This document shows, in pieces, positions 2,471 through 27,406 of a stretch of DNA of 64,000 bases. Position 1 is the first letter of the stretch. Each line of letters opens with the position of its first letter. The notes under the pieces were generated by a model. The model saw nothing but the letters and a program-made list of their open reading frames with translations, did not search any database and was not told the origin of the DNA. Source of the stretch: Escherichia coli. GTDB lineage: Bacteria > Pseudomonadota > Gammaproteobacteria > Enterobacterales > Enterobacteriaceae. The stretch is from the NCBI RefSeq assembly GCF_048403405.1, contig NZ_CP183129.1. One strand, given 5' to 3'. The position numbers were made by a program, and so were the translations under genes.

Positions 2471-3376
2471 TCAGATGTTTTTTACACTGACAGCTTCTTT
2501 TTTCTTACGGCTCACCAGCGCCAGTGCCAGCACAATCAGCACAATACCGCTACCTTCAACGGCCCCCGGATTCTCACCGAGCAGCCACCAGGAAAAGAGT
2601 ACGCCGCAAACGGGAACGGCCAGTGTGCTTAAGCTGGCAATACTGGCAGGCAAGTTTTTCAGCACAAACAGCCATAAGCTCCACGCCAGCGCCGTCGCCA
2701 GAATCGCACTGTAGGCCAGCGCCCAGAACACGGTGGGCTGCCAGTCAATTTCACGTTGTGGCACCAGTAAAGCGACCGCACTCATCACCAGCGCCGCATA
2801 AAGCATCTGCCAGGATGTTAACGACAATAAATCCACGCGTGGATGGCGGGCGTATAGGCGTTTCGCGACAATCGCGCTCGCCCCCCAACTAACACCGGAG
2901 AGGATTGCCAGCAGGGCACTTTTCATCGAAGAGAAATCGAGTTGCCACGGCTGCAACACCAAAAATAAGCCGAAAGCGGCAATCAGTATCGCGAAATATT
3001 GCCCACGTCGCAGGCGTTCACCGAGAAACAACGCGGCGAAAATCACCACCCAGAACGGCATGGTATAGCTCAGGATCGCCACCTTCCCCGCTCCTCCGCT
3101 AACCAGCGCCCACTGCGCCAGGCCAACCATCCCACAGGTTTGTAACAGGGCAATGGCTAAGGTGTATTTAAACGGTGTCGGGCGCATTCCGCGACCACGT
3201 AATAAAAGGACAATGAATAAAACGAGAGCGCCGAAAATGCAGCGTAAGGCGGTGAAGTCGAAGGCACCGATGTAGCTGGTGACTTGCTTCATGAAAATCC
3301 AGCTATAACTCCAGATAAGTGTGAGCACAACCAGGCCACTGATTGCCAGTGGGTTGCTCTTTCCTGCGGCAGACAT
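2471..3376 (-). CDS. yijE: EamA/DMT-family inner membrane transporter YijE
   Basis: ORF 2471..3409 trimmed to ATG 3376 ([14 protein letters not shown]...); 301 aa, multiple hydrophobic helices. Confidence 0.8.
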
Positions 3377-3427
3377 GAGAGATCCAGTGTGTAGTTTTCC
3401 TGTGGACACTATACGCCGGTAAAGAAA

Positions 3428-3460
3428 CTTCAGCGACTGCCATCAGGCAGTCGCTGAAGA
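3428..3460 (-). terminator. rho-independent terminator of katG
   Basis: cttcagcgactgcc-atcag-ggcagtcgctgaag hairpin followed by a T-run on the minus strand, 9 bp after katG stop. Confidence 0.7.
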
Positions 3461-3468
3461 AGGTCAGA

Positions 3469-5703
<2,235 letters not shown>

Positions 5704-5977: not shown

Positions 5978-6871
<894 letters not shown>

Positions 6872-7249: not shown

Positions 7250-8803
7250 TTACTTGATATCTTTCACGCGCATACCGTTGATCTGTTCATCCGTGATGGT
7301 GTTACCCGCTTTGAAGTAATCAACCACGGCGTGATAAACGTAATAACCGCCCGTTGTGTTACGCGCTTTCCCTTCGGTAAAGGCGGTAAAACCATCTCCA
7401 CCATCAGCAAGGAAACTCTGAGTAGCAATGTGGTAAATCGTCGCATCTTCAATGGGTTTGCCATTCAGAGTCAGCGTGATTACCCGCTGACCAACCGGCT
7501 TACTGCTGTCGTACTTCATTTCCAGGCCTTTCGATACCTGTAAAACGCCATTACTTAAACTTGCGCCGTGTTCCATCAAACTGCGTAATTGTTTACCCGT
7601 GAGATCCATCGTCACCAGTTCGTTGGGAAACGGGAAGGTACTGATGACGCCGCCCATCGTAATCGCCCCTGCGGGGATCTCATTGCGAATGCCGCCAGAG
7701 TTGGTTAACGCCAATTGGGTGTTTTTACCCGCCGCTACCAGTAAAGCATCAGCCGCCAGGTTCCCGAGGGAAGCCGATTCACCATAGGCACGTTTTAATT
7801 CAACCGGCGATTTCGCGACCGTTTGTTGCACCACTTCATCAAGCTTTTTATTCCAGCCGTCGATCACCTGTTTTGTTTGCGGATCGGGCTTCCACTCGTC
7901 GGCGTAAATGGTTTTAAGCTCGAAGTTTTTCACCGTAAAATCATGCGGCTTCTCTTTGTAGTCGAGAACCAGTTTGCCCACATCAATCCCGCCGCTGTCA
8001 GTGGAGAGGATGAGCGTATTGCCGACTTTAATCGGTTCCGGCGTACCCACATGCGCATGTCCGGTGATCAAAATATCCAGCCCTTTCACCTGACTTGCCG
8101 TCTGAATATCTTTATCCAGCGCGCGACGCACATCTGTGCCTCCCATACTGGACTGGCGGGCCGGAACACCTTCATGGATCAGGGCGACGGTCAAATCAAC
8201 CTTGCCTTTAAGTTCATCGATATAACGTTGTAGCCATTTAATTTCATCACGCGCTTCAATCCCCACTCGCGTTGCCGCAGATACCGTGTCATTAAAGGCA
8301 AATACACCGTGCAAACCTATAACGCCTATTTTCACGCCGTCTTTTTCGATGATGGTATATGGCTTATCCCAGAATGATTTACTGCTGTTCTGATAAAAAA
8401 CATTGCCCTGCACAATAGGGAATTTTGCCTGACTCAACTGTAATAATGTGTTGTCCCAGCCGTGGTCAAATTCATGGTTGCCTATCGTGACGGCATCAAA
8501 CGGCATAGTATTCATAATATCGATAATAGCCTTACCTTTGGTCAGGCTGCTGATATATGGCCCGGTAAAATAATCACCCGCATCAAAAAACCATGTCGCT
8601 TTATTTTTTGCTTTTTCTTGCTTAACCAGCGTAGTGATATTTGCCCAGCCGCCAATATCCCGTTTACCATCAGCGATCCACGGCACTTTATAAGGCTCGA
8701 CATGCGCATGGAGGTCGTTGGTATAAATGATGGTGACATCTTTGGCGCAAGCCCAAAACGGCAGTGTTAATGCGATACCCGCAGCAAGTATTTTAATTTT
8801 CAT
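7250..8803 (-). CDS. periplasmic bifunctional metallophosphatase/5'-nucleotidase (UshA/YfkN family)
   Basis: 517 aa; signal peptide [20 protein letters not shown]; calcineurin-like motifs NDLHAH, GDYFTG, GNHEFD, GHAH; C-terminal 5'-nucleotidase-like region; RBS aaggga. Confidence 0.8.
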
Positions 8804-8935
8804 AAACAGTCCCTTTCAGTGAGATAAAGGATTGCTACATTACGTTCTGAAAGAGTTATTTATGTGAGAGTAATCACATCCACAGGGGAGCGTTGCCGGA
8901 CAAAATCAACGACCATGTGAAATCGTTGGTGATAT

Positions 8936-10066
8936 ATGTCGACTCTGTTTACGATTAATGCCTGCAAGTCGTTTGGTTGCCGTAATTTAGGGCAGCCAAC
9001 ATCTAAAGATTATAGCTGGCCCGACTATCGGCTGGGTTATCCGGCATTGCACTGTCGGGCATGTGGCAGTTACCCGCCGTTGTTTGACGAGCAACAATTT
9101 CGTGACTGGTTGTCAGTTCACTTATCTACTTTTGCAACAGAGAAAGGCCATTTTTGCCCGGTATGTTATGGCACAAAGACGATTTGTTATGGCCACAATC
9201 CACAGGGGTCGCAACGCATTCAATGTCGTAACTGCAAAAAAGTCTGGACACCTAAACAATATCAGAAAGAAATAACGCCTCCTGAAATAATCGAAACGGT
9301 TGCTCTTCTGGTGCCATTTCAGGGAGCCAGCAATGGGCAGAAACTGTATGTTTTAATCAGTTTTGATGCTCTTCGCGGTAATATTCTTCATCTTTCTACT
9401 AATTACACGCAGCATCAGGCTGGAGAAAGTCTGCATTATCGATACAGAGGGAATGCAGAACCAGAGTTACACGAGAGTAATATTGTACAACGCGTTGATA
9501 TGCGCGAAGCACAATTTCTACGCCGCAGTCAGTTTGATGAAATTCAGTATGGCAGCGCAGCGCTCAAACGCAATGCTAAAGGTGTTATTCTGCGTCCGGT
9601 TATCACTGCACACGGGCATTTCAGAGTACTGAATATTTTATTCCCTACAGTAAAAACACATGTAATTTCACACGAGTGTTTTTTAAGAGGTGCGATTATT
9701 ACGGCCTGGGCAGAACTGTTTCGCCAACAGCAAGGTGAGATTTGGTTTATTGAAGAGGAAATAGCTGACTATACCGATAATACGCCCTGGCGTTTTCAGG
9801 GAAAAACTTATCACGGCTGGTGGAAAAATCAGTGGCAACTCTGGGTTCAGGGCAAAAATCGTAAAATGGTATGTGCATTAACGGGCGGAAATATCAGCAA
9901 AGCTGAAATGCTCTCTTTAGCAACCAGCAGACATTTTATCGACTGGCTACATAAACAAGCAGTATTTACTCACAGCGCCCCGCTTTCCGCAGGGCGCGTT
10001 ACGCAAATACTGCTTTCTCTGGCTCAGGATTACAACAACTGCGCCAGGCGGTTAATATCCGACTGA
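8936..10066 (+). CDS. hypothetical Cys-rich protein with N-terminal zinc-ribbon motifs (CxxC...CxxC), function unknown
   Basis: 376 aa ORF; CRACGS, CPVCYG-x19-CRNCKK reminiscent of IS1/IS1595 transposase zinc ribbons; 3' end overlaps the metL 3' end convergently. Confidence 0.5.
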   Translation: MSTLFTINACKSFGCRNLGQPTSKDYSWPDYRLGYPALHCRACGSYPPLFDEQQFRDWLSVHLSTFATEKGHFCPVCYGTKTICYGHNPQGSQRIQCRNCKKVWTPKQYQKEITPPEIIETVALLVPFQGASNGQKLYVLISFDALRGNILHLSTNYTQHQAGESLHYRYRGNAEPELHESNIVQRVDMREAQFLRRSQFDEIQYGSAALKRNAKGVILRPVITAHGHFRVLNILFPTVKTHVISHECFLRGAIITAWAELFRQQQGEIWFIEEEIADYTDNTPWRFQGKTYHGWWKNQWQLWVQGKNRKMVCALTGGNISKAEMLSLATSRHFIDWLHKQAVFTHSAPLSAGRVTQILLSLAQDYNNCARRLISD

Positions 10067-12464: not shown

Positions 12465-13625
12465 TTACCCCTTGTTTGCAGCCCGGAAGCCATTTTCCAG
12501 GTCGGCAATTAAATCTTCGCCATCTTCAATACCGGTGGAGATACGCAGCAGCGTCTCTGAGATCCCGGCGGCAGCACGCGCTTCTGGTGCCATGCCTGCA
12601 TGTGTCATGGTTGCGGCGTGAGAGATTAAACTTTCCACTCCCCCTAATGATTCCGCCAGCGTAAACAACGACAGCCCGCCCAGGAAACGACGCAGCGTCT
12701 GCTCATCGCCATCCAGTTCAAAACTCAACATTGCGCCAAAGCCTTTTTGCTGGCGCGCGGCAATTTCATGCCCCTGATTTTCCGGCAGCGACGGGTGATA
12801 CAGTTTTTTCACCAACGGCTGGGTTTGCAGATATTTCACAATCGCCTGCGCGTTGCGCTGGGCCAGCTCCATACGCGGCACCAGAGTTCGCAAACCGCGT
12901 AGCAGCAGATAGCTGTCAAACGCGCCGCCCGTCACGCCAATATTGTTTGCCCACCAGGCCAGTTCGGTGACAACGTCCGGATCTTTAGCAATCACCACGC
13001 CGGCCACCACGTCTGAGTGACCGTTCAGATATTTCGTGCATGAATGCAACACCAGATCGGCACCTAATGCCAGCGGATTTTGTAATGCCGGGCTTAAGAA
13101 GGTGTTATCCACCACACTCACCGCCCCGACTTCCCTTGCCAGATGGCAGATTTTCGCAATATCCACGACGCGTAACAATGGATTACTTGGGCTTTCTACC
13201 AGTATCAGTTTGGGGTTTTCTGCCAGCGCTGCCCGTAATGCCTGTTCATCGCCTTGATCAACAAACAACACGCGATAGCAACCGCGTTTCGCCAGGCTGT
13301 CGAACAGGCGATAGCTACCGCCGTAGCAGTCGTGCGGCGCAACCAGCAGATCGCCAGGTTTCAAAAAGACGGTCGTTACCAGGTGAATCGCGGACATGCC
13401 GGTATTAGTAAGTACGGCACCGGCACCGCCTTCCAGTTCTGCCAGCGCACGCTGAACCACATCGCGCGTTGGGTTGCCACGACGCGAGTAATCATGCGCG
13501 CGCGGTTCATTAAATCCGGTAAAGTTATAGGTGCTGGAAAGATGGATCGGTGGGACAACGCAACCATACTGTTCGTCGTCATTTAACCCGCTACGCACTG
13601 CGATGGTGGCCTGTTTACGCGTCAT
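12465..13625 (-). CDS. metB: cystathionine gamma-synthase
   Basis: ORF 12465..13802 trimmed to ATG 13625 (MTRKQATIAVRSGLNDDEQYG); 386 aa; PLP-dependent; 2 nt upstream of metL. Confidence 0.95.
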   Translation of the reverse strand: MTRKQATIAVRSGLNDDEQYGCVVPPIHLSSTYNFTGFNEPRAHDYSRRGNPTRDVVQRALAELEGGAGAVLTNTGMSAIHLVTTVFLKPGDLLVAPHDCYGGSYRLFDSLAKRGCYRVLFVDQGDEQALRAALAENPKLILVESPSNPLLRVVDIAKICHLAREVGAVSVVDNTFLSPALQNPLALGADLVLHSCTKYLNGHSDVVAGVVIAKDPDVVTELAWWANNIGVTGGAFDSYLLLRGLRTLVPRMELAQRNAQAIVKYLQTQPLVKKLYHPSLPENQGHEIAARQQKGFGAMLSFELDGDEQTLRRFLGGLSLFTLAESLGGVESLISHAATMTHAGMAPEARAAAGISETLLRISTGIEDGEDLIADLENGFRAANKG

Positions 13626-13686
13626 GTGATGAAGTTCCCTGGGCTTGGTCGGTGAAATGTCAGGCACCAGAGTAAACATTGTGTTA

Positions 13687-13720
13687 ATGGACGTCAATAC
13701 ATCTGGACATCTAAACTTCT
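13687..13720. promoter_or_regulatory. metB/metJ divergent operator: tandem met boxes (ggacgtca atacatct ggacatct aaacttct)
   Basis: Four contiguous 8-bp AGACGTCT-like repeats in the metB-metJ intergenic region. Confidence 0.75.
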
Positions 13721-13901
13721 TTGCGTATAGATTGAGCAAATCCCAAATAGCCGTTAAAATTATATGCATTATCACGCCGACAGGTGCATTACACGATGTC
13801 ACGGTAACGCCTGTACGGTAAACTATGCGGGTTTACGGTCAGTACCCACATAAATTGTGTGGTCTGGTCTCAATTTATTGACGAAGAGGATTAAGTATCT
13901 C

Positions 13902-14219
13902 ATGGCTGAATGGAGCGGCGAATATATCAGCCCATACGCTGAGCACGGCAAGAAGAGTGAACAAGTCAAAAAGATTACGGTTTCCATTCCTCTTAAGGTG
14001 TTAAAAATCCTCACCGATGAACGCACGCGTCGTCAGGTGAACAACCTGCGTCACGCTACCAACAGCGAGCTGCTGTGCGAAGCGTTTCTGCATGCATTTA
14101 CCGGGCAACCTTTGCCGGATGATGCCGATCTGCGTAAAGAGCGCAGCGACGAAATCCCGGAAGCGGCAAAAGAGATCATGCGTGAGATGGGGATTAACCC
14201 GGAGACGTGGGAATACTAA
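13902..14219 (+). CDS. metJ: methionine repressor MetJ
   Basis: ORF 13857..14219 trimmed to ATG 13902 ([18 protein letters not shown]); 105 aa. Confidence 0.95.
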
Positions 14220-14228
14220 AGCGGAAAA

Positions 14229-14259
14229 GAGCGGCGCGGAGTTAACCAGCCGCTTTTTT
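14229..14259 (+). terminator. rho-independent terminator after metJ
   Basis: gcggcgcgg...ccgc stem followed by TTTTTT. Confidence 0.55.
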
Positions 14260-14278
14260 CATACATGGACGTTTAACG

Positions 14279-14887
14279 ATGAAAATCAGGCTACTGATCC
14301 TCAGCCTGCTGGTTTCTGTGCCTGCATTTGCCTGGCAACCACAAACCGGCGACATCATCTTTCAGATCTCTCGCTCATCGCAAAGTAAAGCGATCCAACT
14401 GGCGACCCATTCCGATTACAGCCACACCGGTATGCTGGTGATGCGTAACAAAAAGCCCTACGTTTTTGAAGCGGTCGGCCCGGTGAAATACACCCCGCTC
14501 AAGCAGTGGATTGCCCATGGTGAAAAGGGCAAATACGTTGTTCGCCGCGTTGAAGGCGGACTGAGTGTTAAACAACAGCAAAAACTGGCGCAAACGGCAA
14601 AACGTTATCTCGGCAAACCGTACGATTTCAGCTTCTCGTGGAGCGACGATCGCCAGTACTGTTCGGAAGTGGTGTGGAAGGTTTACCAGAATGCGCTGGG
14701 AATGCGCGTGGGCGAACAGCAGAAGCTGAAAGAGTTCGACCTGAGCAGCCCACAAGTTCAGGCAAAGCTCAAAGAACGTTACGGCAAGAATATTTCGCTT
14801 GAGGAAACGGTAGTTTCACCACAAGCCGTTTTCGATGCGCCACAACTCACCACGGTCGCCAAAGAGTGGCCGCTGTTTTCGTGGTAA
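14279..14887 (+). CDS. yiiX: YiiX-family putative lipid-binding hydrolase (signal peptide)
   Basis: 202 aa; MKIRLLILSLLVSVPAFAWQPQTGDIIFQ. Confidence 0.8.
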   Translation: MKIRLLILSLLVSVPAFAWQPQTGDIIFQISRSSQSKAIQLATHSDYSHTGMLVMRNKKPYVFEAVGPVKYTPLKQWIAHGEKGKYVVRRVEGGLSVKQQQKLAQTAKRYLGKPYDFSFSWSDDRQYCSEVVWKVYQNALGMRVGEQQKLKEFDLSSPQVQAKLKERYGKNISLEETVVSPQAVFDAPQLTTVAKEWPLFSW

Positions 14888-14890
14888 TGG

Positions 14891-14974
14891 ATGATGAAAA
14901 AAATAATTCCCGCCGTAGTCTGTTTGTTGCTTTGTAGTTGCACGACCTTTCCGCAAGCTGTCGCTCCGGTAAAC
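14891..14974 (+). pseudogene. 5' fragment of a lipoprotein gene (MMKKIIPAVVCLLLCSCTTFPQAVAPVN) truncated by the IS1 left end
   Basis: ATG 3 nt after yiiX stop; lipobox-like LLCSC; frame runs into the IS1 inverted repeat and stops inside it. Confidence 0.3.
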
Positions 14975-15031
14975 GGTGATGCCTCCAATTAGTTGAATTA
15001 AGGATATAATACTCGCTTTTAAGGTTGTTTC

Positions 15032-15304
15032 ATGGTCACAGTTAACCTTCATTGTCCCCGTTGCCAGTCCGTTCAGGTTTACCGTCACGGGCAGAACCCC
15101 AAAAGACATGATCGATTCCGCGGCCGTGACTGTCACCGGGTATTTCAACTCAGTTACTGTTACGAGCCCCGTAAACCGGGAGTTAAAGACCAAATCGCTG
15201 AAATGGCTTTCAACGGTGCCGGGGTTCGCTATACTGCCCGTACGCTGAAAATCGGCATTAATACAGTCATCCGAACTTTAAAAAACTCTCGCCACGAAGA
15301 ATAA
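15032..15304 (+). CDS. insA: IS1 InsA (zinc-finger / HTH transposition inhibitor)
   Basis: 90 aa MVTVNLHCPRCQSVQVYRHGQ... aligns with IS1 InsA by eye. Confidence 0.8.
   Translation: MVTVNLHCPRCQSVQVYRHGQNPKRHDRFRGRDCHRVFQLSYCYEPRKPGVKDQIAEMAFNGAGVRYTARTLKIGINTVIRTLKNSRHEE
15280..15286 (+). promoter_or_regulatory. A6C programmed -1 ribosomal frameshift motif of IS1 (aaaaaac)
   Basis: Motif at the insA 3' end, as in canonical IS1. Confidence 0.6.
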
Positions 15305-15322
15305 CGTCATCCCCGGTCGCTC

Positions 15323-15738
15323 ATGCTGATGTGGCACTCATCTGCGAACGTAGTCAGCAATGGAGCTTTGTCGGCAGTAAAGCGCGACAGCACTGGCTCT
15401 GGTACGTGTACAACACGAAAACTGGTGGTGTTCTGGCCTACACTTTTGGCCCCCGGACTGATGAAACCTGTCGTGAACTGCTGGCGCTGCTTACCCTTTT
15501 ACCATCGGCATGTTGACCACTGACGAATGGGGTAGTTACGCTAGAGAGTTACCAAAGGAGAAGCATCTGACTGGTAAGATTTTTACTCAGCACATTGAGC
15601 GTAACAATCTGACCCTGAGAACCCGAATCAAACGTCTGGCCCGCAGAACCATCTGTTTCTCGCGTTCTGTAGAACTTCATGAAAAAGTCATCGGTGCTTT
15701 TATCGAAAATATATGTTCTACTAATTGGAGTCATCACC
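15323..15738 (+). pseudogene. insB: IS1 insB, interrupted by an additional frameshift near 15480-15510; reading frame also runs past the right IR
   Basis: InsB-like sequence split between two frames (…AYTFGPRTDETCRELLALLTLLPSAC* / …PFTIGMLTTDEWGSYARELPKEKHLTGKIFTQHIERNNLTLR…). Confidence 0.6.
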
Positions 15739-15793
15739 CTTCTGATGAGCTTTCCTTGGATGATTACCAGACTGAATACACAGCCAAAGATTT

Positions 15794-16117
15794 TTACCTC
15801 ATTCTGCTCTTTTTTCTCAAATGACATATATTATATTTTACATCATATTCATAGGTATATGACATTCCCCCGCCCCCCATTATGTCATTGTGGGTTGATG
15901 TTGGGCTTTCATAAAAAAATACATCTTTTTTTGAACTAGCATTAATTATATTTACTTTATATATTAAAATATTTTCTCCATCTGGAAATATTTTAGCCAC
16001 ACAATATAAAGCAGCTAAATCCGAATTACTTAAAAATATATTGTCATCACTCATAACTCCAGCCATTAAATGACTGGAGACTAAAGCAAGGAAATAACAA
16101 CATTGTATTGCCTTCAT
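15794..16117 (-). CDS. putative immunity protein for the orphan Rhs C-terminal toxin
   Basis: 107 aa from ATG 16117 (MKAIQCCYFLALVSSHLMAG...), GGGAG RBS, start 1 nt after the orphan rhs-CT stop; N-terminal hydrophobic segment; AT-rich. Confidence 0.55.
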   Translation of the reverse strand: MKAIQCCYFLALVSSHLMAGVMSDDNIFLSNSDLAALYCVAKIFPDGENILIYKVNIINASSKKDVFFYESPTSTHNDIMGGGGMSYTYEYDVKYNICHLRKKSRMR

Positions 16118-16118
16118 T

Positions 16119-17654
16119 TTAATTACTCCCTTGCCTGATAATTGCAACTCCATTCCCTTTAGCTTTGGGATTATATTTTAGATAGGTGTTATTTGGTGTT
16201 CCCAAGTAACTACTGTATTCTTTTTTTCCCATTCCATTCATATAAGAATTCGTTAAATCTTTGCTTGAAAAATTTAGACTATCATAAACATCATTTTCTT
16301 TTGTTACTTTATTTCCTTTATCGTCAGAGTAAAAACCGTGAGTGTGATAATCACCTACTCTCTCTGAACCTTCAGGGCATTTTATATTTCGCAAGTCTAC
16401 ACTATCATTATCATTTGAACTTATCGGATTCATAGGGAAATATTCACCTTGCTTCTTACATATTAGTCCACCATATTCTTTATTCTTGTTAATTGATTCT
16501 CCATTACACATTGCCAATGCAAATATTCCAATATCATCTATATTTTTTGATTTAAATTCATATAATCCTAATGGATCCATGCCATTCACCGGGCTCAGCG
16601 GATATGTATACAGGTTCCATCCCCCCTTCAGCCCAATCGGATCCTGAGTGATATACCGCCCCTGCAGCGGGTCATAATAGCGGTGGCGGTTGTAATACAG
16701 GCCGGACTCCTCATCATACTGCTGACCCGGCAGGCGGATGAGCTGCTGCAGCTGATGCGGGTTCTCTTCATTCAGCTGGTTACCCCATTCATCGTATTCT
16801 GCGCACCATTCTGTTGCCCCTTCCGTGCTGACAAGCGCCAGCGGCAGGCCGCGATGGTCGCAGTGGTACAGGTGGATTTTTCGCGCCGGCGTGTACACCG
16901 GGTCCATCTGGTTTTGTATCTGCTCCACCGTCAGGCCGCACGATGCCAGCCAGCGGCGGCTTTCCTCGCTCACCCGGTCAGCCAGGATTTCACTTTCCAG
17001 CCGGTCGAGCATCTGCACCAGCACCGGCGGGAACACCACACTGCCACCGTCTTCACCGCCGGACTGCTGAAGCGCATCCGCCAGGCTGCGGCGCTGCGTT
17101 TTCGCCAGCTCACCGGTGGCAGTTTCAACTCTGATGAGTGGCGTGAAGCTCCCCGGCTGATAAACCGTCTGGATGCGGGTTCTGTCGTTCTGTATTGTGG
17201 TCAGCCGGTCGCCGTCCCAGCCGTACCAGGTCACTTCCGGTTTCCATGACAGCGACATCCAGCCCGTCAGGTCCCGTTCACGCCGCCATACCCGTTTTGC
17301 CACCCTGCGGCCCAGCAGGTCGTAAAGATAGCGACTTTCGACCAGCGGCTCTGCATATTGTGTCCGCGTGTAGTGCACCAGCCGGTGCCGGCTGTCGTAA
17401 TGGTACCGGTGAGTCCGCTCATCATCCGTGCGGATAACCCCTTCCGGGATGAGGTCGGTTTTCTCCGTCAGCCTGCCGTGACGGTCATACCGGTAAAGAT
17501 AGTGCGCGTCACGGGCGATACGGTTATCCGGCCATGCGCTGAGGGGGCTGTCCGGGTGCAGCTCCGGGTCGGGCAGGCGGTTGCCTGCCGGGTCCGTGGC
17601 ATACGGGATATCAATGCCCAGGTTACATATAATAATAAGAGCAATTAACTTAAT
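16119..17654 (-). CDS. orphan Rhs C-terminal module: 5'-truncated rhs core ending in the DPLGL motif plus a distinct ~150 aa toxin tip; no start codon of its own
   Basis: Frame is open from 17654 but first ATG/GTG/TTG is at 17378; residues ...[22 protein letters not shown]...[39 protein letters not shown] are near-identical to the main rhs; tip contains YHTHG. Confidence 0.7.
16606..17608 (-). repeat. ~1.0 kb direct repeat (orphan copy) of the rhs core 3' region
   Basis: Near-identical to 20946..21938 (only scattered mismatches on visual alignment). Confidence 0.8.
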
Positions 17655-17981
17655 TTATTTGTTTATAATGCGCTTACTTAATACAAACCATTGAATATAC
17701 CCTCCTGACAGAAAATAAAGCCATATTATTATCGCCATAATATACTTACTATCAATCCTTACGCCAATAATGTCTGAAACAGTCCCTATAAATATTAGAG
17801 CAATAAAGAATACTATGCCTGTTGGAAAACAGATTACCATCATTCCATAAGACATGAGACTAATTAACTCGCTCACATCACGAGTGGAGTCTAATAGTGA
17901 AAGTCTATGCATGGAAAAGAATAGTATTAAAAGCGATAAAGCCAGCCATATAGCTCTGAATAAAAAAATAATATATTTCAT
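17655..17981 (-). CDS. small polytopic membrane protein (108 aa), candidate stranded immunity protein
   Basis: MKYIIFLFRAIWLALSLLILFF...; about three hydrophobic helices; AT-rich; stop codon directly abuts the orphan rhs frame. Confidence 0.4.
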   Translation of the reverse strand: MKYIIFLFRAIWLALSLLILFFSMHRLSLLDSTRDVSELISLMSYGMMVICFPTGIVFFIALIFIGTVSDIIGVRIDSKYIMAIIIWLYFLSGGYIQWFVLSKRIINK

Positions 17982-18059
17982 TACATCACTCCGGTGAATA
18001 CAAATCTAATAAAGCGTCCAATGTTATTTCCGGAGCACTTCATCTTACATGTTTCTAAA

Positions 18060-19260
18060 GAATCATTAGACCAGTCAGGGCAAGATTACGAAAGCCCGCT
18101 CCCCGCAAGGACTGACGCGAGATAGTTTCTGTCCATGGCTGCTTTTCGCATCTTACGTCTTAACCCTGCCTTGAATACCTTATCATTCGTCAAAATATTA
18201 ATAGCAATGTGCCGTATCCCTGAAAATAATTCTGCTGCGTTTCCTCTTCTTATTTTGCAGTCGTCTTCATTCATTACCACGTCCAGACGCCAGTGCAGCT
18301 TATTCTCCACGTGCCAGTGGTTTCGGATTGCTGTGGCGAACTTCTCAGCGGTTAAATCAGCAGAGCTGATATAATATCTGACCGTCATTTCTGGCTCTTT
18401 CTTTTGTTCTGCTATTATTGACCGAAAGGAGACTGCCACGTATAATTTTTCAGTCCTTTCCATTCAAATGTAAAATCAATAAGTTCATCAGGGACATCGC
18501 AAACAATATGAAGACGGATTTCTTCTCTGCCGTGACTCTTTTCACTAATTGCGTAACTGTCATGCTCTGGATTAATTAATTCTTTCAGCGGAAATGTTTC
18601 CTCAAAGGCTTTATTCAGCCGCCCCTGGTTTCCTTTTACAGCGAATAAGTAATCACCACCCTGTTTTTGTATCTTCTCTGCAATATCTTTCTGGCAACCC
18701 ATCGCATCAGTTGTGATGATTTTCTCTTTAATATACAAAATGTTAAGAAGTTCAGGGATAGCTGTGATCTCATTAGATTTCTCATCCGTCCTGATCTGCC
18801 CCAGGACCAGAATGTGCATTGTTGAGAACGCACTAATGACATGAATCGCTCCCCTGCGGCGACTCTTGTCATAAGAATGCCGGAGTGTTTTTCCATCAAT
18901 TGCGATGACGTCTTTATCATCTGAAGTATGGCAATCTCGCATCCAGTTAATAAAGCACTCGTGAAATTTTGCAGGACTGATACAGGATACAACTCTGGCG
19001 ATGGTATCGTGAACAGGAATACCATTTTCAAAATCACCGTATTGTTTTAAAAAATCGAGATGTGTTTCCCCAAAATCCTCTATATCTTCCCAACCTTCTG
19101 CACCCGAAATAACGGCACAAATAGTCAACAGTAGAATATCCGATAATTTATGTTCCACTTTCCAGGCTTGTCTGTAATCGGGGATAATAGAAATATGCTC
19201 CATCAATTTTTTAAGTTCCATTTTGTTCTCCTTAATTATGTAAGGAGTATTTGATCATGT
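18060..19260 (-). mobile_element. H-repeat / ISAs1-family element (approximate boundaries)
   Basis: Contains the H-rpt transposase; termini not defined by eye. Confidence 0.5.
18086..19221 (-). pseudogene. H-repeat-associated (ISAs1-family) transposase, split by a frameshift near 18415-18463
   Basis: 268 aa N-terminal piece ([28 protein letters not shown]...) and 125 aa C-terminal piece (…[21 protein letters not shown]…) in different frames. Confidence 0.75.
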
Positions 19261-19324
19261 ATAAGCAATAAAAAACAGCTTTAGGTAATGAGGAATATCT
19301 CAATTTTCAAACATAAAATGCGAA

Positions 19325-19920
19325 TTATTTAGTACAAAAAAGCAGCGTTACGTGATCTTTCCCTGGCATGTCATTAGATGAACCAGTTATACAACCCTCG
19401 GAACAGAATCGAGGTCCTAAAGACGGACCAAAAGCGTTTAAACAACTATGTATTGAAAATCCATTACGATTATAAGTTCCTGTATTAACTGACGGTACTA
19501 ATCGTATGCCGTCAGGTTTTCTATTGCTTGCTCCCGGGTCATTAACATTCCAACTCCATAGGCCTTGAGGTATTGGCCCTCTATTTATAAATGTGTACAA
19601 CGGGGATTATTTTTACATTGCATATTATTACCAGAAGCGACTGGAATACTAAGCACATCATAAAAATTATCATCACCTGGTATATCTGAAACACACGAAA
19701 GCATACCTAAAGTTATGCTGTATAAACAGGTGGCTAATCCCAAGGGGATCGATTCCAGAAATCGGGTTCAACGGATACTGATAAAAATTCCACCTACCTT
19801 CCAGCCCAATCGGAGCCTGAGTGTTATACCGCCCCTGCTGCGGTTAATGTTACCGATAATAGTTATAGTACAGCCCTGATTCATCATCATACTACTGCTG
19901 CGGCAGTCTGATGAATTATT
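19325..19920 (-). pseudogene. degenerate orphan rhs-CT remnant (rhs core 3'-end fragment with stops and intact DPLG codons, then a decayed tip)
   Basis: 19770..19920 is roughly 75% identical to the rhs core end by eye; translation gives [51 protein letters not shown] then a stop; 91-aa ORF 19325..19600 follows. Confidence 0.55.
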
Positions 19921-19924
19921 GCTT

Positions 19925-20392
19925 TTACGGATTCTCCTTATTCTTCCTTCTATCCATTCGCTTTAGCTTTAGCTTTTTGAGATCTTGAAGTTTGCTCTTT
20001 GCATCAATATTACCGTTATTTACAGCGAATTCCATCCAATAAATAGCTTTATTCAAATTATAATGTTCTGATAATATTGGATTTGTATCCGATAAAAAAA
20101 ACCCATAATTAAACTGCGCTGTAACACTCCCCTGAGATGCTGATCTTTCTAAGTATCGCAATTGTTTGTAAATGTTATTTTTAGTAAAGCAGTAATATTG
20201 ATATAGTCGAAATGATGCCTCTGAATCACCATGTTGTGATTTATACTTCAGTTTCATCAACTTTTCTTCACTTAAATCATAGGTCATTGCTGTAGACCCC
20301 ATCATACTTTCGTTTTGTTTTATTTTCACATCAGCACCATGCAATTGAAAAATAAAAGAGAAATAAAAAAATAGTAACAAGCATGCTTTCAT
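19925..20392 (-). CDS. putative Rhs immunity protein, secreted, Sel1-like repeat
   Basis: 155 aa; signal peptide MKACLLLFFYFSFIFQLHGA; Sel1/TPR-like segments (…ASQGSVTAQFNYGFFL…, …AIYWMEFAVNNGNIDA…); starts 12 bp after rhs stop; AT-rich. Confidence 0.6.
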   Translation of the reverse strand: MKACLLLFFYFSFIFQLHGADVKIKQNESMMGSTAMTYDLSEEKLMKLKYKSQHGDSEASFRLYQYYCFTKNNIYKQLRYLERSASQGSVTAQFNYGFFLSDTNPILSEHYNLNKAIYWMEFAVNNGNIDAKSKLQDLKKLKLKRMDRRKNKENP

Positions 20393-20403
20393 ACATCTAC
20401 AAC

Positions 20404-23400
20404 CTATCTTATATCACTGGGTTTTTCTGGCGTACCTTGCATATTAGAAATGGGGTGCCCAGATGGCCCATATGTTATCCAATTACCAAGGTCTTTTGTT
20501 GTTATAGCCATTAGATCCTTATTTGAATTAAGGTTCGTTGGTGCTGTTAGCACTGTATCCATTTTTAACTTACCATTAGTTCCTCGCCCCCACCACGTCC
20601 ATAGCGTGTCAGGTCCTATTACATTTGTATGTAACTCTTTAGCTAATTGGCTAGCAAATGAATTTTGTCCTTTACCTGTATTACAAGAAAATAACCAAAC
20701 TGTCATCCCATCTTTATAATTCCCATCAAATTTAATTAGATATGCTAGATCTTTAGCTGTCATGATACTGCGCGTTGCGGATTCAATAGATGTGGGGGTA
20801 CCATGCCCCCCGATTGTGAAAACGCCTGGGATATTAATCTCATCAGCTACAGAATGGATAAGATCACTTTCGGGGTATAAATTTATATCAACCAAACCTT
20901 GCGGATCTACATTTATGACCGGATCCAACGGATACTGATAAAAATTCCATCCCCCCTTAAGCCCAATCGGATCCTGAGTGATATACCGCCCCTGCAGCGG
21001 GTCATAATAGCGGTGGCGGTTGTAATAGAGGCCGGACTCCTCATCATACTGCTGACCCGGCAGGCGGATGAGCTGCTGCAGCTGGTGCGGGTTCTCTTCA
21101 TTCAGCAGGTTGCCCCATTCATCGTATTCTGCGCACCATTCTGTTGCCCCTTCCGTGCTGACAAGCGCCAGCGGCAGGCCGCGATGGTCGCAGTGGTACA
21201 GGTGGATTTTTCGCGCCGGCGTGTACACCGGGTCCATCTGGTTTTGTATCTGCTCCACCGTCAGGCCGCACGATGCCAGCCAGCGGCGGCTTTCCTCGCT
21301 CACCCGGTCAGTAAGGATTTCACTTTCCAGCCGGTCGAGCATCTGCACCAGCACCGGCGGGAACACCACACTGCCACCGTCTTCGCCGCCGGACTGCTGA
21401 AGGGCATCCGCCAGGCTGCGGCGCTGCGTTTTCGCCAGCTCACCGGTGGCGGTTTCAACTCTGATGAGTGGCGTGAAGCTCCCCGGCTGATAAACCGTCT
21501 GGATGCGGGTTCTGTCGTTCTGTATTGTGGTCAGCCGGTCGCCGTCCCAGCCGTACCAGGTCACTTCCGGTTTCCGTGACAGCGACATCCAGCCCGTCAG
21601 GTCCCGTTCACGCCGCCATACCCGTTTTGCCACCCTGCGGCCCAGCGGGTCGTAAAGATAGCGACTTTCGACCAGCGGCTCTGCATATTGTGTCCGCGTG
21701 TAGTGCACCAGCCGGTGCCGGCTGTCGTAATGATACCGGTGAGTCCGCTCATCATCCGTGCGGATAACCCCTTCCGGGATGAGGTCGGTTTTCTCTGTCA
21801 GCCTGCCGTGACGGTCATACCGGTAAAGATAGTGCGCGTCACGGGCGATACGGTTATCCGGCCACATGCTGAGGGTGCTGTCCGGGTGCAGCTCCGGGTC
21901 GGGCAGGCGGTTACCTGCCGGGTCCGTGGCATACGGGATGCGGATATCCAGATTCGCTGCGGTGGTGTGGACGCCGGTCAGCCTGCCGGTGTCGCTGTAG
22001 CTGTAACTCCGGGTCTGGCGCGGGCTGCTGATGCGGATGAGTTCGCCGTTGTCGTTCCAGGTGTAATCGCGGTCATACTGCAGGCTGTTCAGGTGCTGGC
22101 TCTGTAACTGCCCGGCAGAGGTGTAAGCGGTGGTGAGTTCATAACGGCCGAAGCTGCGCAGCGTTTCCCGGTGCAGGCGGTCGCGGGTGAAATCCACCAG
22201 CGGTGTGTCGCCGAGTTTCATGCCTGACAGCCAGCCGCTGCCGTAGGTCAGCCATTCCACGGCGGGCAGGCTGTCCGGTATACAGCGGTTCGCCAGTCCC
22301 TGCGCGTTGTACGCATGTCTGGTTTCATGCTGCCAGAGCAGTGCTTCCGTCTGCGGGTGATGCACCGTCTGGCGCTCACCGGTCAGGCGGCCTTTCTCAT
22401 CATACCCGTAATGCACCGTCACCCGGTGGCCTTCGCTGAGATGGCTGATGCCTGTCAGCCAGCCGCGTTCGTCGTACCGCCACTGTTCTGCGGTTTCACC
22501 ATTCACCGTTCGCTGTGTGATGCGGTCTGCTTCGTCATAGTGCCAGTGGGTGACCAGCCCCTCATCCTCGCTGCGGATAAGTTTGCCGGTCAGGTCGTGG
22601 TGATAACGCTGTGTGCGGCCGTCAAAGCCGGTTTCCTGTATCAGCCGGTCAAGTACATCGTAACGGAAGGTGGTGTGGCTGCCGTTTTCACTGGTCAGGC
22701 GGATGACCCGCCCGGCAGCATCGTATTCCATACTGCGCGTCAGACCGCCCTGCGTGGTACGGATGGCCTTTCCCCACGCATCGTACTGTGTCCCGTTTCT
22801 GCTGTCGTCCGGGGCAATGACGGCGGTCAGGTCACCGGCGGCGTTGTATTCATACCGCGTTTCATGGCCCTGCATGTCTTTCACCGCAATTAACTGTCCA
22901 CGGCTGTCGTATGCGCGGTACTGGCTCAGGCCTTCCTCGCGGTGCACCGTCGTCACCTGACCAAAACGGTCATGGTCATAGCGGGTTACATAACCGGAAC
23001 AGTCGGTAAAGCTCAGCAACTGACCGTAACGGCTCCACGTCATGGTTTTCCGGCTGCCGGTGGCATCTTCCGTTGCGCAGGGGAAGTCACTGTGTGGATT
23101 ATCATAACGGTAGCGGGTGATATCGCCGTCAGGGGCGGTTTCCTGAATCAGACGGCCGGATTCATCATATTTGCGGCGCAACTCCAGCCCGTCAGTCCCG
23201 GTGGCTGACGTTAACTGGTTGTGGTGGTTATAGTAAAATGCCGATGCCCTGCCATCCGGTGTGGTGATGCGCGTGATGAGTCCCGTCACCACATCCGGGC
23301 TGTACTCAGTCGTCCGGCCTGCGGCATCCGTCTGTGCCTTAAGCCTGCCCACCGCATCAAACTGACTCTGCGCGACGCTGCCGTCCGCGTGTTCCTTTTT

Positions 23401-24633
23401 CACCACCCGCTTCAGCCCGCCTTCGCCCTGCGTGTGCAGCACTTCACGGCGGTCCAGACTGTCGGTGATGGTGATGCGGTCTTTCTCATACTGATACGTG
23501 TAGCTTAAGCCTGCCGGGTTTAGCTGCTCTGTCACCCGCCCGTCGCTGTCGTAACGGTAACGGATTTCCGGCCGGCCCGCGCGGCGGTGCGCCACCATCC
23601 GGCCCCGGTATTTATCATCGTAAGTAAAGCTGCGCACCTGTTTGCCACTGCGGTCATACACCGCCGCCAGTTCGCCGCGTGGCGTCCAGCCATAGCGCAC
23701 CAGCGGCGCGGCAGGTAAATTCTCCGGGTATTCAGGGTCGTGTGTCAGCCACACGGCAGACAGACGGATACCGTTGTCCCGGCCATATTCCGTGTAGTCC
23801 GGCAGGGTATCAGGAAAAGCGGACGGTTCCGTCCCGCCGGAAGTGGCCTTCTGCCGGGCCTCTTCTGCCCGCTGCGCCTGCGTGGTCAGTACCAGCCGGA
23901 AGTGACGCCCGGCACCATCCGTCACGCCGGTGATTTCGCCGCTGAATTCACCGCCAGCCTCACGGTGAAACGTCTGTGTGCGCCCGAAGCGGTCCACCAG
24001 CCCGGTCAGTACCCGGTACGGCGGCAGCGGCGCGGGCAGCACCTCATCCGCCTCCGGCACCTGCTCACACCAGCCGAGTACCCACCACGGCCCCTGCGGA
24101 CTGTTTGTCGCCAGATAACGATGCGGACTCAGGCGGAGTTCTTCCGGCAGCGCCTGCCAGAGTGCGGCCAGCCGGTGACCTTCATCCAGTTTCAGGACAC
24201 CGCCACGCACCAGCCAGAGTGATTCGCTGCGGCTGTAACCGTCCTCACCGGGAAACAGGTGCTCAAAATACAGGCTCCTGCCGCCGTTATCACTGAGTAT
24301 CAGTGTGTTATCGCGCAGCTGTAGGCGGATATCCGCAGGCATTTTCCAGCCGGGGCCGAGGCTCCCCACCGGCGCGGGCGTTTTTGTCCGGTAACTGCTG
24401 TAGGTGCGGGAGAGGATGAACGGCAGCGGGCCGGGCAGGGCAAGGTCGGTTTCGCCGGGAAGGACCTTCGCACCGAGCAGCGGATTGACCGGATGGCCGG
24501 ACGTCACCCCGCCGGGGCACACCGAACAGGCCACGCCGGTGGGGGCACCAATACGTACCCCGGCAGAACCCTGAACAATGCTACCGCCATACTGCGTCAT
24601 GTCGCCCTGACGCGCCGCCGGTTTTCCGCTCAT
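20404..24633 (-). CDS. rhs: Rhs-family polymorphic toxin (PAAR-like N-terminus, YD repeats, core ending PxxxxDPxGL, variable C-terminal toxin tip)
   Basis: 1409 aa; N-terminus [31 protein letters not shown]; many YD-type repeats; ...[14 protein letters not shown] followed by a ~162 aa AT-rich tip. Confidence 0.9.
20946..21938 (-). repeat. ~1.0 kb direct repeat (main rhs copy) shared with the orphan rhs-CT
   Basis: Near-identical to 16606..17608. Confidence 0.8.
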
Positions 24634-24752
24634 CGTAAAATCCTTTTGAAATAAATAAGAACCAGAAGCCTAGCGCCAGTCAACAACAGGAAATGATAAT
24701 GAGTTAACACCCCGGAATTTTTCAGAATTTATAAAAGGCAAATTACAGGCAC

Positions 24753-24779
24753 AAAAAAAGCGCCGTGCGGCGCTTTTTT
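24753..24779 (-). terminator. rho-independent terminator of rpmE (bidirectional hairpin)
   Basis: aaaaaaa-gcgccg-tgc-ggcgc-tttttt. Confidence 0.7.
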
Positions 24780-24792
24780 CGGAAATCCGGTC

Positions 24793-25044
<252 letters not shown>

Positions 25045-25048
25045 CTAA

Positions 25049-27406
<2,358 letters not shown>

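Follow-up and report, generated by a model that had tools for sequence, protein, structure and literature searches.

Genes and features between yiiX and rpmE

In the 64-kb stretch of E. coli DNA analysed here (the window), the genes metB (−), metJ (+) and yiiX (+) lead up to the 5′ remnant of a lipoprotein gene, an insertion sequence of the IS1 family and an Rhs element, beyond which the chromosomal backbone resumes at the terminator of rpmE. The original prediction had assigned positions 14891–15738 to a defective IS1 variant; inspection of this range resolved it into a truncated ORF and the IS, the latter alone occupying 14975–15738. The features are listed below, those of the Rhs element (RhsF) with coordinates taken from the RefSeq annotation of an identical record (L001 coordinates plus 2599).

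14279–14887, plus strand: yiiX, the backbone gene on the left (ORF, and RefSeq annotation on a 100% identical record)
14891–14974, plus strand: 5′ remnant of a TIGR02117-family lipoprotein gene (28 codons: signal peptide, lipobox Cys and 11 residues)
14966–14974, no strand: left 9-bp flank CCGGTAAAC, candidate surviving half of a target duplication
14975–15738, plus strand: IS1H-type element of the IS1 family, defective, 764 bp
14975–14997, plus strand: left terminal inverted repeat, 21/23 match to the right repeat
15032–15304, plus strand: insA, open frame of 90 aa, with the zinc-finger change Cys31 to Gly at codon 15122–15124
15280–15286, plus strand: A6C programmed −1 frameshift motif, near the end of insA
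15287–15724, plus strand: insB′ remnant, spread over three frames
15494–15496, plus strand: first inactivating 1-nt deletion (C4 run to C3), in all five chromosomal copies compared
15706–15709, plus strand: second inactivating 1-nt deletion (A5 run to A4), in all five chromosomal copies compared
15716–15738, minus strand: right terminal inverted repeat
15739–15793, no strand: distal non-coding end of RhsF, its first 9 bp, CTTCTGATG (15739–15747), being the non-matching right flank of the IS
15794–16117, minus strand: dsORF-f3 (RefSeq name), small ORF that follows the last C-terminal tip of Rhs, presumed to be the immunity gene for that tip
16119–17624, minus strand: orphan Rhs core-end and C-terminal toxin tip, paired with dsORF-f3
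17655–24745, minus strand: remainder of RhsF (ybfB, frameshifted ISAs1/H-rpt, Rhs fragment, Sel1-repeat gene, main rhs and upstream region)
20404–24633, minus strand: main rhs gene
24746–25005, minus strand: resumption of the backbone, rpmE terminator and rpmE (24793–25005)

The Rhs element, whose order on the minus strand is main rhs, Sel1-repeat gene, Rhs fragment, ISAs1/H-rpt, ybfB, orphan core-end/tip and dsORF-f3, has the location of RhsF, between yiiX and rpmE with dsORF-f3 at its distal end, and a core ORF closely related to the rhsA/B/C cores of K-12, as in the RhsA-B-C-F subfamily (over the 5′ 248 nt of the query, identity to rhsB of K-12-type genomes was 96–97%, and the orthologue is called rhsC or ‘RHS element core protein’ by PGAP). 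Its tail past dsORF-f3 reads CTTCTGATGAGCTTTCC..., and since the IS lies 55 bp beyond dsORF-f3 it forms the distal (yiiX-proximal) edge of RhsF, as had been predicted. In O157:H7 RhsF is reduced to rhs, dsORF-f3 and IS1H alone, so the IS1H/dsORF-f3 end is constant and the variation lies upstream. Homologs of the dsORF-f3 protein were found in E. coli only, all of them variants or fragments, and the protein had no match in NCBIfam.

RhsF was reportedly described by Zhao and Hill in 1995. The E. coli W genome contains one IS1H as well as an Rhs at b3936–b3937, which corresponds to rpmE–yiiX (PMC3032704), and the same locus is Rhs locus 11, yiiX–priA, of Jackson et al. (2009; PMC2935791). Full-text literature searches on RhsF with IS1 and on dsORF returned nothing relevant. 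We detected no difference between the window element and the known IS1H/RhsF of E. coli; they are the same thing, and the IS1H scar at RhsF is already known, annotated in RefSeq and ordinary biology.

Some further observations concern the surrounding map. The frameshifted ISAs1 (H-rpt) transposase (18086–19221) and the short Rhs fragment with an internal stop (19673–19891) separate the main rhs/Sel1 pair from the older ybfB/orphan-tip/dsORF-f3 module, an arrangement consistent with C-terminal displacement. An Rfam scan of 13000–26000 identified only the L31-Gammaproteobacteria ribosomal-protein leader (25012–25064, minus strand, 60 bits), upstream of rpmE as expected. The metJ–yiiX spacer (14220–14278) is 59 bp long in the window and in O157:H7 and 183 bp in K-12, AR_0061 and LD39-1; when one type is aligned with the other by BLAST, the alignment is interrupted at this spacer. 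Elsewhere in the window (~7250–10066), the interval between metF and metL contains genes for a bifunctional metallophosphatase/5′-nucleotidase and a ‘cytoplasmic protein’, which isolate 648 shares and which O157:H7, AR_0061 and LD39-1 lack.

An inactivated member of the IS1 family

The original description of a defective IS1 variant with inverted repeats and an A6C motif was borne out. The element is 764 bp long, close to the ~770 bp of the family, and its ends are imperfect ~23-bp repeats starting GGTRATG that agree at 21 of 23 positions (GGTGATGCCTCCAATTAGTTGAA vs GGTGATGACTCCAATTAGTAGAA). Its insA continues into insB′ in the −1 frame through A6C, the −1 frame reading KKLSPRRITSS... as in intact relatives. 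The frame-repaired, conceptual InsAB′ reached 243 bits with the profile NF033558 (‘IS1 family transposase’; cut-off 100), so the assignment to IS1 is no chance match; the intact InsAB′ encoded on plasmid pEM148 of E. marmotae scored 263 bits. The window region is 100% identical to that of E. coli TUM14771, and on 100% identical sequence RefSeq carries the label ‘IS1-like element IS1H family transposase, frameshifted’, beside ‘RHS element protein dsORF-f3’. We use the isoform name IS1H solely after this PGAP label on 100%-identical RefSeq loci; in K-12 the same name also denotes, by copy letter, a canonical IS1 at flhDC that has nothing to do with the divergent isoform (PMC3531124). The source chromosome has one IS1H copy, and IS1H-like copies in E. 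coli occupy a median of 2 places per genome, and up to 10.

Canonical IS1 (IS1A/IS1R, 768 bp) resembles the window copy in its ~23-bp repeats starting GGTGATG, its A6C −1 frameshift into insB′, its insA with a CxxC...CxxC zinc finger and the insB′ stop inside the right repeat, and it resembles the active relatives of that copy in generating 8–9-bp target duplications. Nonetheless, the alignment with an IS1 reference that had been proposed as a check, for which IS1A was taken from another E. coli, gave IS1-family architecture with identities of just 52% in nucleotides and ~40% in the amino acids of InsAB′ and, unlike canonical IS1, the window copy is dead and without a duplication. Much closer are the IS1H-family copies on Salmonella plasmid pSA20083530.1 and on pEM148, which have the same ends and show 94% nucleotide and 92% InsAB′ identity, but which differ from the window copy in being 766 bp long, in encoding an unbroken 231-aa InsAB′ and in having kept Cys31 and DEQW.

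Lesions were called against these intact 766-bp relatives. The extra frameshift that had been noted in insB is real, but it is one of several lesions: there are two 1-nt deletions, in the C4 run and in the A5 run; a cluster of substitutions changes CELDEQW to CERSQQW in insB′, where SQ replaces DE at 15350–15355 (IS1A has EMDEQW), and the lost D of DEQW is presumably the first DDE residue; and the CxxC...CxxC zinc finger of InsA has Gly in place of Cys31. The InsAB′ frame ends after 161 aa, whereas autonomy would call for an uninterrupted, competent InsAB′. Every lesion of the window copy was also present in the same-locus copies of O157:H7 SS17, LD39-1, MB06173 and SMN197SH3. Since all lesions are thus common to five divergent E. 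coli lineages, the inactivation is older than the spread of the haplotype.

The open insA raised domestication as an alternative to decay, which we rejected: the zinc-finger Cys is lost, the differences between insA translations of the lineages are all amino-acid replacements, and two insA variants from metagenomes carry the nonsense codon Q15*. This pattern of change indicates neutral decay rather than domestication. A second fossil of the IS1H family, 92% identical and decayed independently with a frameshift and an internal stop, was encountered in strain E7 (L004 1501–2268), where it adjoins a transketolase fragment and a ProQ/FinO pseudogene.

The interrupted lipoprotein gene and its ancestral state

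The lipoprotein-like frame that the original prediction saw cut by the IS turned out to be the start of a genuine gene. The remnant ORF (14891–14992; MMKKIIPAVVCLLLCSCTTFPQAVAPVN followed by GDASN*) begins 3 nt past the yiiX stop, and its frame enters the IS and stops at 14992. Strain AR_0061 has an intact allele between yiiX and rpmE, which encodes 207 aa, is annotated ‘TIGR02117 family protein’ and matches that family over its full length with 225 bits (DUF2459 lipoprotein; cut-off 131); its homologs preserve the lipobox L-x-[GS]-C (LLYGC, LIAGC and similar). The gene is mostly or fully kept in 288 of 5426 complete E. coli genomes, and the order metJ–yiiX–TIGR02117 recurs in an Escherichia cryptic-clade genome, in Phytobacter, in an Enterobacter and in two Klebsiella species; rpmE is the following gene in some of these. 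Being intact in E. coli and syntenic in related genera, the TIGR02117 gene is therefore ancestral at the yiiX–rpmE site. K-12 represents a third state, with neither the lipoprotein gene nor Rhs; its junction contains a 12-nt filler, acgaccaaaatt. The intact-gene, K-12 and RhsF haplotypes all return to the backbone at a single base, where the rpmE terminator, ‘caggcacaaaaaaagcgcc’, starts (window 24746; L002 6926; K-12 L003 ~1803).

Comparison with AR_0061 defined both ends of the rearrangement. Window and intact gene run collinear through ...GCTCCGGTAAAC (L002 6375), and the next base is the start of the IS, so that the breakpoint falls exactly at 6375/6376. Backbone homology ends at 14974 and resumes only at 24746; in between, 550 bp of ancestral DNA (L002 6376–6925) are missing and 9771 bp (IS1H and Rhs) are present instead. 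The missing 550 bp were not found elsewhere in the window. Among sampled genomes of the Rhs type, the best match to the intact gene was its 5′ 87 nt, with two matching places per genome, the second presumably being the terminator. The proposed comparison with IS-free relatives has thereby recovered the intact lipoprotein gene (in AR_0061, among the 288 genomes and in other genera), but it did not yield the original junction on the Rhs side.

That the 9-bp flanks of the IS differ was also correct: CCGGTAAAC and CTTCTGATG are alike at 3 of 9 positions, which is no 8–9-bp target duplication. A search of the 64-kb window for an overlooked direct repeat found CCGGTAAAC once only, while CTTCTGATG recurs once, in reverse orientation and 44 kb away. 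By comparison, the IS1H-family copy on pEM148 is flanked by an 8-bp target duplication, TGGTAAGT. The age of the element and its many substitutions might suggest that a simple insertion lost its 9-bp duplication by point mutation. This reading is excluded: in the ancestral gene CCGGTAAAC is followed by AATGACTTTGCAGG..., whereas the right flank carries no continuation of the gene and 550 bp are missing. Besides, the flanks agree poorly, and local decay has been slight, the left 87 nt being 94–100% conserved across lineages. The missing duplication reflects rearrangement and not non-membership in the IS1 family. In this respect the original preference for a deletion or rearrangement over a simple insertion holds: the left side is collinear up to the exact IS end, 550 bp beyond the other end are gone, and homology comes back at 24746. 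An inversion is unlikely, given that the missing part of the gene is absent from the window, that the source chromosome has a single IS1H and that sampled Rhs-type genomes match best only over the 5′ 87 nt.

Distribution and later changes of the junction

Judged by BLAST coverage classes rather than by inspection of each genome, the left junction (yiiX–remnant–IS1H–dsORF-f3) occurs in 2158 of 5426 complete E. coli genomes, the right junction (IS1H–dsORF-f3) in 2162 and the Rhs–rpmE junction in 2174. The event had been treated as strain-specific; by these counts it belongs to RhsF as an old, fixed and already annotated part in about 40% of complete E. coli genomes. Between lineages IS1H diverges by 0.9–2.2%, as against 3–5% for the adjacent metJ–yiiX.

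Earlier states were sought in the same collections. No pre-deletion intermediate, that is, RhsF together with a longer piece of the gene or IS1H with CCGGTAAAC on both sides, was found among the sampled matches to the 5426 genomes or in a metagenome scan. Nor did an IS-free Rhs tail turn up in any of three places: the sampled matches of a BLAST of the flank against these genomes, the homologs of the dsORF-f3 protein, and the metagenome scan. Every full-length sampled match to the flank includes the IS, and the one inspected match without the IS junction is explained by a later IS3 insertion. The metagenome scan, whose pattern demanded a base other than C before the flank in place of the terminal C of the IS, and would miss an IS-free sequence with C at that position, returned two contigs, both of them IS1H with a C to T change at the terminus. 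The suggestion that IS1 had removed part of the Rhs element was therefore not demonstrated, the last toxin-tip/dsORF-f3 module being intact and no IS-free Rhs flank having come to light among the sampled genome matches or in the metagenome scan; the demonstrable loss comprises only the 3′ 541 bp of the lipoprotein gene and a few intergenic bases.

The two exceptions to the common junction that were inspected both show later changes at this end of RhsF. In MB06173 (L008 ~2576–4000), an IS3-family element has subsequently inserted between IS1H and dsORF-f3, whose annotation is shortened. In SMN197SH3, the right terminus of IS1H is fused to the end of the Rhs core (L009 5100/5101, equivalent to window 15738 joined to 16610), with a further 870 bp lost (dsORF-f3 and the toxin tip) and no microhomology at the junction; this joint is a second exact-end deletion at the same IS1H right end. 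The Rhs core of SMN197SH3 also has additional internal deletions, and its chromosome shows a single IS1H-like right end.

Origin of the junction

The element is a fossil copy of IS1H and makes up the border of the known RhsF on the yiiX side. At its left end it is joined to nucleotide 85 of the lipoprotein gene and at its right end to the RhsF tail, 55 bp past dsORF-f3. A missing target duplication is usually explained by adjacent deletion or by recombination between two IS copies (PMC11708052), and we consider it probable that IS1H inserted and that an adjacent deletion followed. In favour of this, IS1-family elements make normal target duplications elsewhere, as on pEM148 and in strain 8600, and the 870-bp loss in SMN197SH3 shows that deletions starting exactly at this IS end do happen. 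We infer the order of events and the mechanism of the deletion from the structure of the junctions: since homology resumes a few bases past the stop codon of the gene, arrival of RhsF first, then insertion of IS1H and then a rightward deletion is the simplest history. The starting point would have been the 207-aa TIGR02117 lipoprotein gene between yiiX and rpmE. RhsF would first have come to lie between the stop codon of this gene and the rpmE terminator; an active IS1H would then have inserted into codon 28/29, duplicating CCGGTAAAC; and a deletion anchored at the IS end and running rightwards would have removed the right duplicate, the rest of the gene and some length of the Rhs tail. For this last step an IS1-type intramolecular transposition (‘adjacent deletion’) is the likelier route, the alternative being recombination with another copy of IS1H. 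Afterwards the IS would have decayed (two frameshifts, loss of the DE motif and of the zinc-finger Cys), and the block would have spread or been inherited into about 40% of E. coli. The product resembles IS-mediated adjacent deletions, classical for IS1 and described for IS150 in the LTEE (PMC11708052), in its exact IS end, its one original flank, the loss of neighbouring DNA and the lack of a duplication; unlike the IS150 deletions in the LTEE, the RhsF–IS1H event is ancient and reconstructed rather than observed directly.

The same end product would result had IS1H arrived together with RhsF, being already at its distal end in the donor, its left end joining the DNA to the gene at CCGGTAAAC by a cointegrate, one-ended transposition or break insertion, and the other end coming to lie beside the rpmE terminator, with the 550 bp replaced in the same or a follow-up event. 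Several observations agree with this. The RhsF tail is attached to IS1H wherever it was found, the inspected flank matches without the full junction being IS-only save for the one with the later IS3; the restriction of dsORF-f3 homologs to E. coli and the near equality of the three junction counts point the same way; and the lower divergence of IS1H than of metJ–yiiX is compatible with an IS1H–Rhs block younger than the backbone. Moreover, Rhs elements are not known to have an integration mechanism of their own. A cointegrate, however, predicts a second IS1H and a duplicated CCGGTAAAC on the rpmE side of RhsF, and we found neither: no IS1-like sequence lies near 24746, be it a further IS1H end or an isolated inverted repeat, and CCGGTAAAC is unique in the window; joint arrival therefore needs extra events, and no donor context was found. 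We regard it as rather doubtful.

Also capable of giving exact IS ends between unrelated 9-bp flanks is homologous recombination between an IS1H copy in the lipoprotein gene and another, in direct repeat, in the Rhs tail, which would delete the interval and leave one hybrid IS. Such recombination is a recognised cause of missing duplications (PMC11708052), and the number of IS1H-like copies in some E. coli genomes would provide for it. It requires, on the other hand, that IS1H inserted twice, independently and close together; two copies at the locus were seen in no genome, and the IS displays no mosaic pattern among the five lineages compared. We accordingly think it improbable, more so than joint arrival.

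A broader proposal would make IS1H the vehicle that brought an otherwise non-mobile RhsF into the chromosome, the duplication-less junction being the scar of that integration, with the dead ends perhaps still trimming the toxin/immunity array in trans. Use of the dead ends in trans is hinted at by the exact-end deletion of 870 bp in SMN197SH3. As a whole we hold this proposal to be unlikely, and offer it tentatively. The wider question is how Rhs elements enter chromosomes; the junction is compatible with an IS-assisted entry and is no proof of one.

The scar explains why about 40% of E. coli are without a functional TIGR02117 lipoprotein gene beside yiiX. It also gives the distal end of RhsF a constant marker and provides a clean natural case of an IS without a target duplication in which the ancestral sequence is recoverable; its value beyond careful annotation is small.

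The same small lipoprotein gene has independently been hit by another IS1. In strain 8600 (L093 1050–1817), a canonical 768-bp IS1A lies within an otherwise intact TIGR02117 gene, flanked by a perfect 9-bp duplication, CGAGGCGGG, and gives a picture of what a simple insertion looks like there.
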